From Escherichia phage T7: DNA of 38,166 nucleotides. Below are positions 21,402 to 22,597 of the stretch, piece after piece. The first letter of the stretch is position 1, and each line of letters begins with the position of its first letter. The position numbers were made by a program, and so were the translations under genes. The stretch lies in sequence record MZ375249.1, one strand, 5' to 3'. Under the pieces are notes generated by a model, which worked only from the letters and a program-made list of their open reading frames with translations, had not been told where the DNA came from and did no database searches.

Positions 21402-22439
21402 ATGGCTAGCATGACTGGTGGACAGCAAATGGGTACTAACCAAGGTAAAGGTGTAGTTGCTGCTGGAGATAAACTGGCGTTGTTCTTGAAGGTATTTGGC
21501 GGTGAAGTCCTGACTGCGTTCGCTCGTACCTCCGTGACCACTTCTCGCCACATGGTACGTTCCATCTCCAGCGGTAAATCCGCTCAGTTCCCTGTTCTGG
21601 GTCGCACTCAGGCAGCGTATCTGGCTCCGGGCGAGAACCTCGACGATAAACGTAAGGACATCAAACACACCGAGAAGGTAATCACCATTGACGGTCTCCT
21701 GACGGCTGACGTTCTGATTTATGATATTGAGGACGCGATGAACCACTACGACGTTCGCTCTGAGTATACCTCTCAGTTGGGTGAATCTCTGGCGATGGCT
21801 GCGGATGGTGCGGTTCTGGCTGAGATTGCCGGTCTGTGTAACGTGGAAAGCAAATATAATGAGAACATCGAGGGCTTAGGTACTGCTACCGTAATTGAGA
21901 CCACTCAGAACAAGGCCGCACTTACCGACCAAGTTGCGCTGGGTAAGGAGATTATTGCGGCTCTGACTAAGGCTCGTGCGGCTCTGACCAAGAACTATGT
22001 TCCGGCTGCTGACCGTGTGTTCTACTGTGACCCAGATAGCTACTCTGCGATTCTGGCAGCACTGATGCCGAACGCAGCAAACTACGCTGCTCTGATTGAC
22101 CCTGAGAAGGGTTCTATCCGCAACGTTATGGGCTTTGAGGTTGTAGAAGTTCCGCACCTCACCGCTGGTGGTGCTGGTACCGCTCGTGAGGGCACTACTG
22201 GTCAGAAGCACGTCTTCCCTGCCAATAAAGGTGAGGGTAATGTCAAGGTTGCTAAGGACAACGTTATCGGCCTGTTCATGCACCGCTCTGCGGTAGGTAC
22301 TGTTAAGCTGCGTGACTTGGCTCTGGAGCGCGCTCGCCGTGCTAACTTCCAAGCGGACCAGATTATCGCTAAGTACGCAATGGGCCACGGTGGTCTTCGC
22401 CCAGAAGCTGCTGGTGCAGTGGTTTTCAAAGTGGAGTAA
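21402..22439 (+). CDS. 10: Gene 10A, major capsid protein (345 aa)
   Basis: MASMTGGQQMGTNQGKGVVAAGDKLALFLKVFGGE... Confidence 0.99.
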   Translation: MASMTGGQQMGTNQGKGVVAAGDKLALFLKVFGGEVLTAFARTSVTTSRHMVRSISSGKSAQFPVLGRTQAAYLAPGENLDDKRKDIKHTEKVITIDGLLTADVLIYDIEDAMNHYDVRSEYTSQLGESLAMAADGAVLAEIAGLCNVESKYNENIEGLGTATVIETTQNKAALTDQVALGKEIIAALTKARAALTKNYVPAADRVFYCDPDSYSAILAALMPNAANYAALIDPEKGSIRNVMGFEVVEVPHLTAGGAGTAREGTTGQKHVFPANKGEGNVKVAKDNVIGLFMHRSAVGTVKLRDLALERARRANFQADQIIAKYAMGHGGLRPEAAGAVVFKVE

Positions 22440-22597
22440 TGCTGGGGGTGGCCTCAACGGTCGCTGCTAGTCCCGAAGAGGCGAGTGTTACTTCAACAGA
22501 AGAAACCTTAACGCCAGCACAGGAGGCCGCACGCACCCGCGCTGCTAACAAAGCCCGAAAGGAAGCTGAGTTGGCTGCTGCCACCGCTGAGCAATAA
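21402..22597 (+). CDS. 10: Gene 10B, minor capsid protein made by programmed -1 frameshift near the end of 10A
   Basis: Slippery ggttttcaaa at 22421..22430; the -1 frame stays open to a TAA at 22595..22597. Confidence 0.8.

Follow-up and report, generated by a model that had tools for sequence, protein, structure and literature searches.

The stretch of DNA analysed here (38,166 nucleotides from Escherichia phage T7, MZ375249.1; hereafter the window) carries at the end of its major capsid gene what is almost certainly the site of programmed −1 ribosomal frameshifting known from gene 10 of phage T7. The finding is not a new one, as the original prediction had rightly stated: this is a textbook recoding site that is annotated in the T7 reference. 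It has been part of that annotation since 1983 and is used in T7 display technology, and the gene 10A/10B frameshift is reportedly covered by Dunn and Studier in 1983 and by Condron, Atkins and Gesteland in 1991. Only the comparative part of the analysis is mildly new, that is, the use of one shift site by different C-terminal modules and a predicted basic helix motif that is under selection. The practical value otherwise lies in an annotation check of gene 10, the shift site, the 10B extension and the terminator Tphi in a deletion-bearing derivative of T7.

Gene 10 and its genomic context

The features of the gene 10 region are as follows.

21322..21344, plus strand: T7 promoter phi10 (TAATACGACTCACTATAGGGAGA), read in the sequence; drives the gene 10 mRNA and is 100% identical to T7
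21402..22439, plus strand: gene 10A, major capsid protein, from the list of open reading frames; 345 codons, stop codon TAA at 22437-22439
22421..22427, plus strand: −1 shift heptamer G_GTT_TTC, with the register taken from the reading of the frames; five codons before the TAA at 22437-22439
22427..22597, plus strand: 10B-specific −1 extension; 56 codons (QSGVMLGV...ATAEQ) and TAA, matching the joined CDS of V01146 and NC_001604
22605..22646, plus strand: Tphi terminator hairpin and U run, from a terminator scan; 15-bp stem at 22605-22640, followed by TTTTTTG

Positions 21300-22700 of the window are 100% identical to positions 22865-24265 of T7 (V01146 and NC_001604) over the 1401 bases compared, and the same holds for AY264774. 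This bears out the earlier description of the gene 10 site and the 10B extension as intact. With a local offset of 1565 between the window and reference T7, the 10A CDS annotated in V01146 and NC_001604 at 22967..24004 corresponds to 21402..22439 of the window, and gene 10B, annotated in both records as a two-piece joined CDS at 22967..24162, corresponds to 21402..22597. The annotated positions of phi10 (22904) and Tphi (24210) fall at 21339 and 22645, respectively.

The 10A reading frame (21402..22439) translates to MASMTGGQQMG...AAGAVVFKVE and matches the Pfam family Gp10A-like (PF21703) with E=1e-114. The chains in PDB entries 2xvr and 3j7v have the same 345-aa sequence, and the solved T7 capsid entries contain the 345-aa 10A sequence only. 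In the longer product, 10B, the Gp10A-like fold (PF21703, residues 62-341) is followed by a tail.

Compared with NC_001604, the window is a T7 genome that is complete from end to end and carries several deletions. One missing stretch, T7 1353-1903, spans genes 0.4-0.6, and its loss takes out the candidate 0.6A/0.6B frameshift region. Also missing are 7608-7763 (gene 1.4), 11254-11542 (gene 3.8), 13353-13547 (gene 4.3), 16483-16820 (gene 5.3) and 39429-39608 (gene 19.5). The terminal repeats (window 1-142 and 38025-38166) are 142 bp each, compared with 160 bp in T7, and both carry the same 18-bp deletion, around T7 99-116. A G>T change (window 37 and 38061) is likewise common to the two ends.

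About 20 point differences from NC_001604 are spread across the window, and none of them lies in gene 10. They include 18006 and 18042 (gene 7.3), 23120 (gene 11; a C>A change, giving FFGEPEVEG in the window ORF), 33698 (gene 17), 31454, 32502 and 32607 (gene 16), 3140 (gene 1) and 14336 (gene 5). The differences cluster in genes for the tail, adsorption and the internal core, which looks like laboratory adaptation. Nothing in gene 10, its frameshift site, its 10B extension or Tphi is affected, so that both forms of the capsid protein, 10A and 10B, are to be expected from this phage.

The shift site and the reading frames around it

The zero-frame codons at the end of 10A are GTG (22419), GTT (22422-4), TTC (22425-7), AAA, GTG, GAG and TAA (22437-9), and this codon phase places the string at 22421-22427 in the X_XXY_YYZ register. 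The original prediction had located a slippery run, ggttttcaaa, at 22421..22430 before the 10A stop at 22437..22439, and direct reading of the sequence gives the same coordinates. The functional motif in the literature is the heptamer 22421-22427, and the trailing aaa is the next zero-frame codon.

The −1 frame is free of stop codons from 22373 to 22594; it is bounded upstream by a TAA at 22370-22372 and downstream by a TAA at 22595-22597. Its translation ends ...CSGFQSGVMLGVASTVAASPEEASVTSTEETLTPAQEAARTRAANKARKEAELAAATAEQ*, with the region SGFQSGVMLGV...ATAEQ running up to the latter stop. An early stop in the −1 frame, which had been named as the observation that would speak against a functional site, is absent: the frame stays open for 56 codons past the shift. 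The 52 or so codons given earlier for the extension are right when counted from the 10A stop (22439..22594). The extension was also said to end immediately before Tphi, and the terminator hairpin does start 8 nt after the 10B TAA. The +1 frame of the window closes 10 codons beyond the 10A stop. A shift anywhere within 22373-22436 would enter the extension, and the only good slippery heptamer in that interval is G_GTT_TTC. The full 10B thus reads as 21402..22427 joined to 22427..22597, a total of 398 codons with Q343..Q398 as the new residues, and the predicted junction peptide is ...GAVVFQSGVMLGVASTVAASPEEASVTSTEETLTPAQEAAR, in which AVVF is joined to QSGVMLGV.

A review gives the shift motif of T7 gene 10 as G_GU(U_UUC), a relaxed P-site form of X_XXY_YYZ-type ribosomal frameshifting (PMC5009743), and according to the literature −1 frameshifting takes place in about 10% of the translations of the gene (PMC1635266). 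The 10B protein is described as having 397 aa, sharing the 10A N-terminus, being present in virions and being dispensable (PMC5592923, PMC3276506).

A likely course of events can be put together from this. Most ribosomes would read GUU UUC AAA GUG GAG UAA and release the 345-codon 10A. In a minority, about 10% if the published rate is taken, the P site would hold GUU (Val341) and the A site UUC (Phe342) at the moment of the shift. The mechanism with the best support is tandem −1 slippage, in which the two tRNAs would each move one base in the 5' direction, onto GGU and UUU, as we infer from the codons. At the A site, the change from UUC to UUU would allow full re-pairing of tRNA-Phe (GAA) through a G:U wobble. 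At the P site, where GUU is exchanged for GGU, tRNA-Val would keep two of three pairs, and this imperfect re-pairing counts against the reading given here. Translation would then resume in the −1 frame at CAA (Gln343) and run through 56 codons until the TAA at 22595-22597 is reached, giving a 398-codon minor capsid protein 10B that would be co-assembled into the head. The efficiency of the process would not depend on a canonical stem-loop or pseudoknot nearby, and the 5' side of the Tphi hairpin may be involved, as the literature implies.

Conservation of the site in related phages

For comparison we used 80 capsid loci (L004-L083) from IMG/VR with 77-100% amino-acid identity in the capsid protein. 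Each of the 80 has an in-frame slippery heptamer whose distance from the capsid stop is 2-8 codons. In 70 of them it is G_GTT_TTC, with the register unchanged. Variant heptamers are found in the remaining ten: C_CCA_AAG in five loci of T3 type, A_GTT_TTC in two, C_GTT_TTC and G_GTA_AAG in one each, and G_GTT_TTA overlapping T_TTA_AAG in one more. Beyond the capsid stop, the −1 frame is open for 38-93 codons in 79/80 relatives, and the +1 frame closes within 2-17 codons. In almost every locus of the T7 and K11 types, the −1 stop is separated by 6-17 nt from the terminator that follows it. One locus (L063) has G_GTT_TTC and a −1 frame that ends 21 residues after the heptamer, 16 codons beyond the end of the capsid gene; its 10B extension may be truncated, or the sequence may contain an error.

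Between the 10A and 10B stops, the numbers of variable columns at codon positions 1, 2 and 3 of the 10B frame are 14, 9 and 27 in the close T7 group (chi-square p=0.006). Synonymous changes account for 45% of the codon differences from T7 when this group is read in the 10B frame, and for about 20% when either of the other frames is used. The third-position bias together with the synonymous excess shows that the −1 frame is translated and selected as protein. These comparative tests independently support an extension that would be translated in the −1 frame and fused to 10A at G_GTT_TTC. They agree with the joined CDS of the reference and with the published motif (PMC5009743), so that the earlier assignment of the site to production of 10B holds.

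Other readings of the extension

The 52 codons at 22439..22597 could in principle be a small gene of their own, translated from an ATG by termination-reinitiation and never fused to the capsid protein. The ATG at 22439 does overlap the 10A stop (TAATG), a GGAG is found at 22433-22436, and the list of open reading frames gives a 52-aa ORF with an ATG start at this position. Exactly this piece is also matched by PHROG 12582, a 52-residue profile named 'head protein'. That profile implies that annotators often call the extension as a separate ORF, as in AP5. The spacing of only 2 nt between the GGAG and the ATG is too short for a normal Shine-Dalgarno arrangement. Among the relatives, the ATG is found in just 16 of 38 T7-type loci, and an early ATG in none of the 36 K11-type and none of the five T3-type loci, yet these still keep the extension and a −1 frame that is open upstream. 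Extensions that mostly do without an early ATG must be made as fusions, and what is conserved is the in-frame slippery heptamer. The literature in turn describes a 397-aa 10B with the N-terminus of 10A (PMC5592923, PMC3276506). A separate gene is therefore very improbable, and for annotators of T7-like phages a small ORF behind the capsid gene is to be taken as a frameshift extension rather than as a gene of its own.

It is still less probable that 10B arises from slippage of T7 RNA polymerase on the run of four T residues at 22423-22426, so that some mRNAs would have lost one base or gained two. A short homopolymer is indeed present, but the runs on which polymerases are known to slip appreciably are far longer than four T residues. 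The relatives conserve a tandem heptamer in codon register, which includes C_CCA_AAG and T_TTA_AAG, and no long homopolymer. Slippage-derived capsid and tail extensions are known from other phages, and the review that covers them places T7 gene 10 in the ribosomal X_XXY_YYZ-type class (PMC5009743).

Taken by itself, the heptamer occurs at the level expected by chance; its frame, its position and its context are not due to chance. GGTTTTC is found five times in the window on both strands together, where 4.67 copies are expected, a count that is uninformative as a test of significance as it is at chance level. The copy in gene 10 is the only in-frame G_GTT_TTC in any T7 CDS. With the stop frequency of 10.3% measured in the −1 frame inside T7 genes, an open −1 run of at least 53 codons has a probability of about 0.003. 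The length of the −1 extension of 10A ranks only about 18th among 52 T7 genes, but this ranking is uninformative because the −1 frame is frequently taken up by the tightly packed genes that follow. The idea that the heptamer and the open frame coincide by accident and that the −1 frame is not translated can draw on the chance-level count and on the many T7 genes with long open −1 frames after their stops, where the next gene lies, but its probability is vanishingly small, refuted as it is by the comparative data: 79-80 of the 80 relatives keep the site, its register and the open frame, the codon positions bear the signs of protein-level selection, and there is an experimental literature (PMC1635266, PMC5009743, PMC5592923, PMC3276506).

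Stimulatory elements and Tphi

A 3' stimulatory structure is common in this class of −1 frameshifting but is not obligatory, as phage lambda G/GT works without one. Neither folding of the single sequence nor RNAalifold placed a canonical hairpin or pseudoknot at a spacing of about 5-9 nt downstream from the heptamer. The nearest structure predicted is the following.

22441..22471, plus strand: predicted local hairpin directly behind the 10A stop, from the MFE/centroid fold and RNAalifold; 13 nt 3' of the heptamer

As a stimulator, this hairpin is unsupported; it has weak pairing with many G-U pairs, RNAalifold gives no covariation (a term of only −0.71), and the hairpin is absent from the more distant T7-type relatives. 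RNAalifold also paired the heptamer with a GAAGGCC about 100 nt downstream, and there the changes among the relatives are one-sided only. A search of Rfam found no matching family.

A CCCC in Tphi is said in a review summary to affect the efficiency of frameshifting by an unexplained long-range effect (PMC5009743). It corresponds to window 22607-22610, about 180 nt after the heptamer. The lack of a nearby stimulator in our searches agrees with the literature, which places the element in Tphi. We considered pairing of the CCCC with the GGGGG at 22444-22448 and found no support for it, as three close relatives (L006, L014 and L015) are without the G-run; the CCCC itself is invariant, so covariation with the G-run is not assessable.

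Different extensions behind one shift site

The C-terminal extensions of the relatives fall into three types. Those of T7 type have 46-60 aa, with a linker that varies and a motif that is conserved, LTP[AQ]QKAA[RI]TRA[ARK]NKA. The T3-type extensions have 86-96 aa and contain a Big_2 Ig-like domain (Pfam E=1e-15). The Klebsiella/K11-type extension, found in 36/80 relatives, has 98 aa and belongs to phrog_7473; it gave no significant match in Pfam. The T7 10B tail likewise has no match in Pfam, and the Ig-like Big_2 domain is absent from it. The motif of the T7-type extension is located in the window as follows.

22508..22555, plus strand: basic motif of the T7-type extension, LTPAQEAARTRAANKA; 16 residues, at the start of a predicted 26-residue helix

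This basic helix motif is strongly conserved (LTPAQKAARTRAANKA), and the peptide is kept across phages whose linkers have diverged completely. Its 16 codons occur in 21 distinct DNA versions, in which the third position is variable in 16/16 codons, the first in five and the second in three. T7 alone has an E in the motif (QEAAR), whereas all 20 other variants have a K (QKAAR).

The 58 residues that begin at the shift site were modelled with AlphaFold from the single sequence. The model, which is weak and was used as a hint only, has about 30 residues without secondary structure followed by a helix at residues 32-57. In the two 10-residue blocks that cover residues 31-50 the mean pLDDT is about 91, and over the whole model it is 74. 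The tail of 10B is thus predicted to consist of a variable linker of about 30 residues and a conserved basic alpha-helix.

The same G_GTT_TTC is followed by no fewer than two C-terminal modules that are unrelated to each other, the T7 helix and the 98-aa module of K11 type, and this suggests a modular exchange downstream of the site. We speculate, tentatively, that the T7-type tail is not functionless but gives 10B a selected function at the capsid surface, and that G_GTT_TTC might serve as a 'plug-in' site for capsid decoration modules.

Residues 357-398 of T7 10B (window 22469-22594) are also found near the N-terminus of PDB 8rcx_A, the regulator VirS (E=4e-10), where they are presumably a vector-derived tag. 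Peptides from the C-terminus of 10B have served as solubility tags; in pET vectors, the T7 terminator is preceded by the same DNA.

Comparison with known frameshift systems

Like T7 gene 10, E. coli dnaX and phage lambda G/GT use tandem −1 slippage on an X_XXY_YYZ-type heptamer to make two products in a fixed ratio, as is well established (see also PMC5009743). The dnaX site has A_AAA_AAG with a Shine-Dalgarno-like element upstream of it and a hairpin a short way 3' of it, whereas T7 has the relaxed P-site G_GU, no supported hairpin nearby and a reported distant element in Tphi (PMC5009743).

In gene 10 of T3 and phiYeO3-12, too, the shift site is placed a few codons ahead of the capsid stop and the shift is −1; the product is a minor capsid protein with a C-terminal extension, and Tphi follows, but the heptamer is C_CCA_AAG instead of G_GTT_TTC. 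The tails differ as well, being a Big_2 Ig-like domain in the T3 type and a predicted linker with a single helix in T7, a contrast that is also drawn in PMC5009743. The Klebsiella phages of K11 type have the same G_GTT_TTC in the same register and a −1 stop just before the terminator, with the 98-aa phrog_7473 module in place of the T7 tail.

T7 gene 10A/10B itself is matched throughout this region, without a single difference in the heptamer, in Tphi or at either of the two stops (10A and 10B). The genome that surrounds the region in the window is that of a deletion-bearing laboratory T7 derivative.
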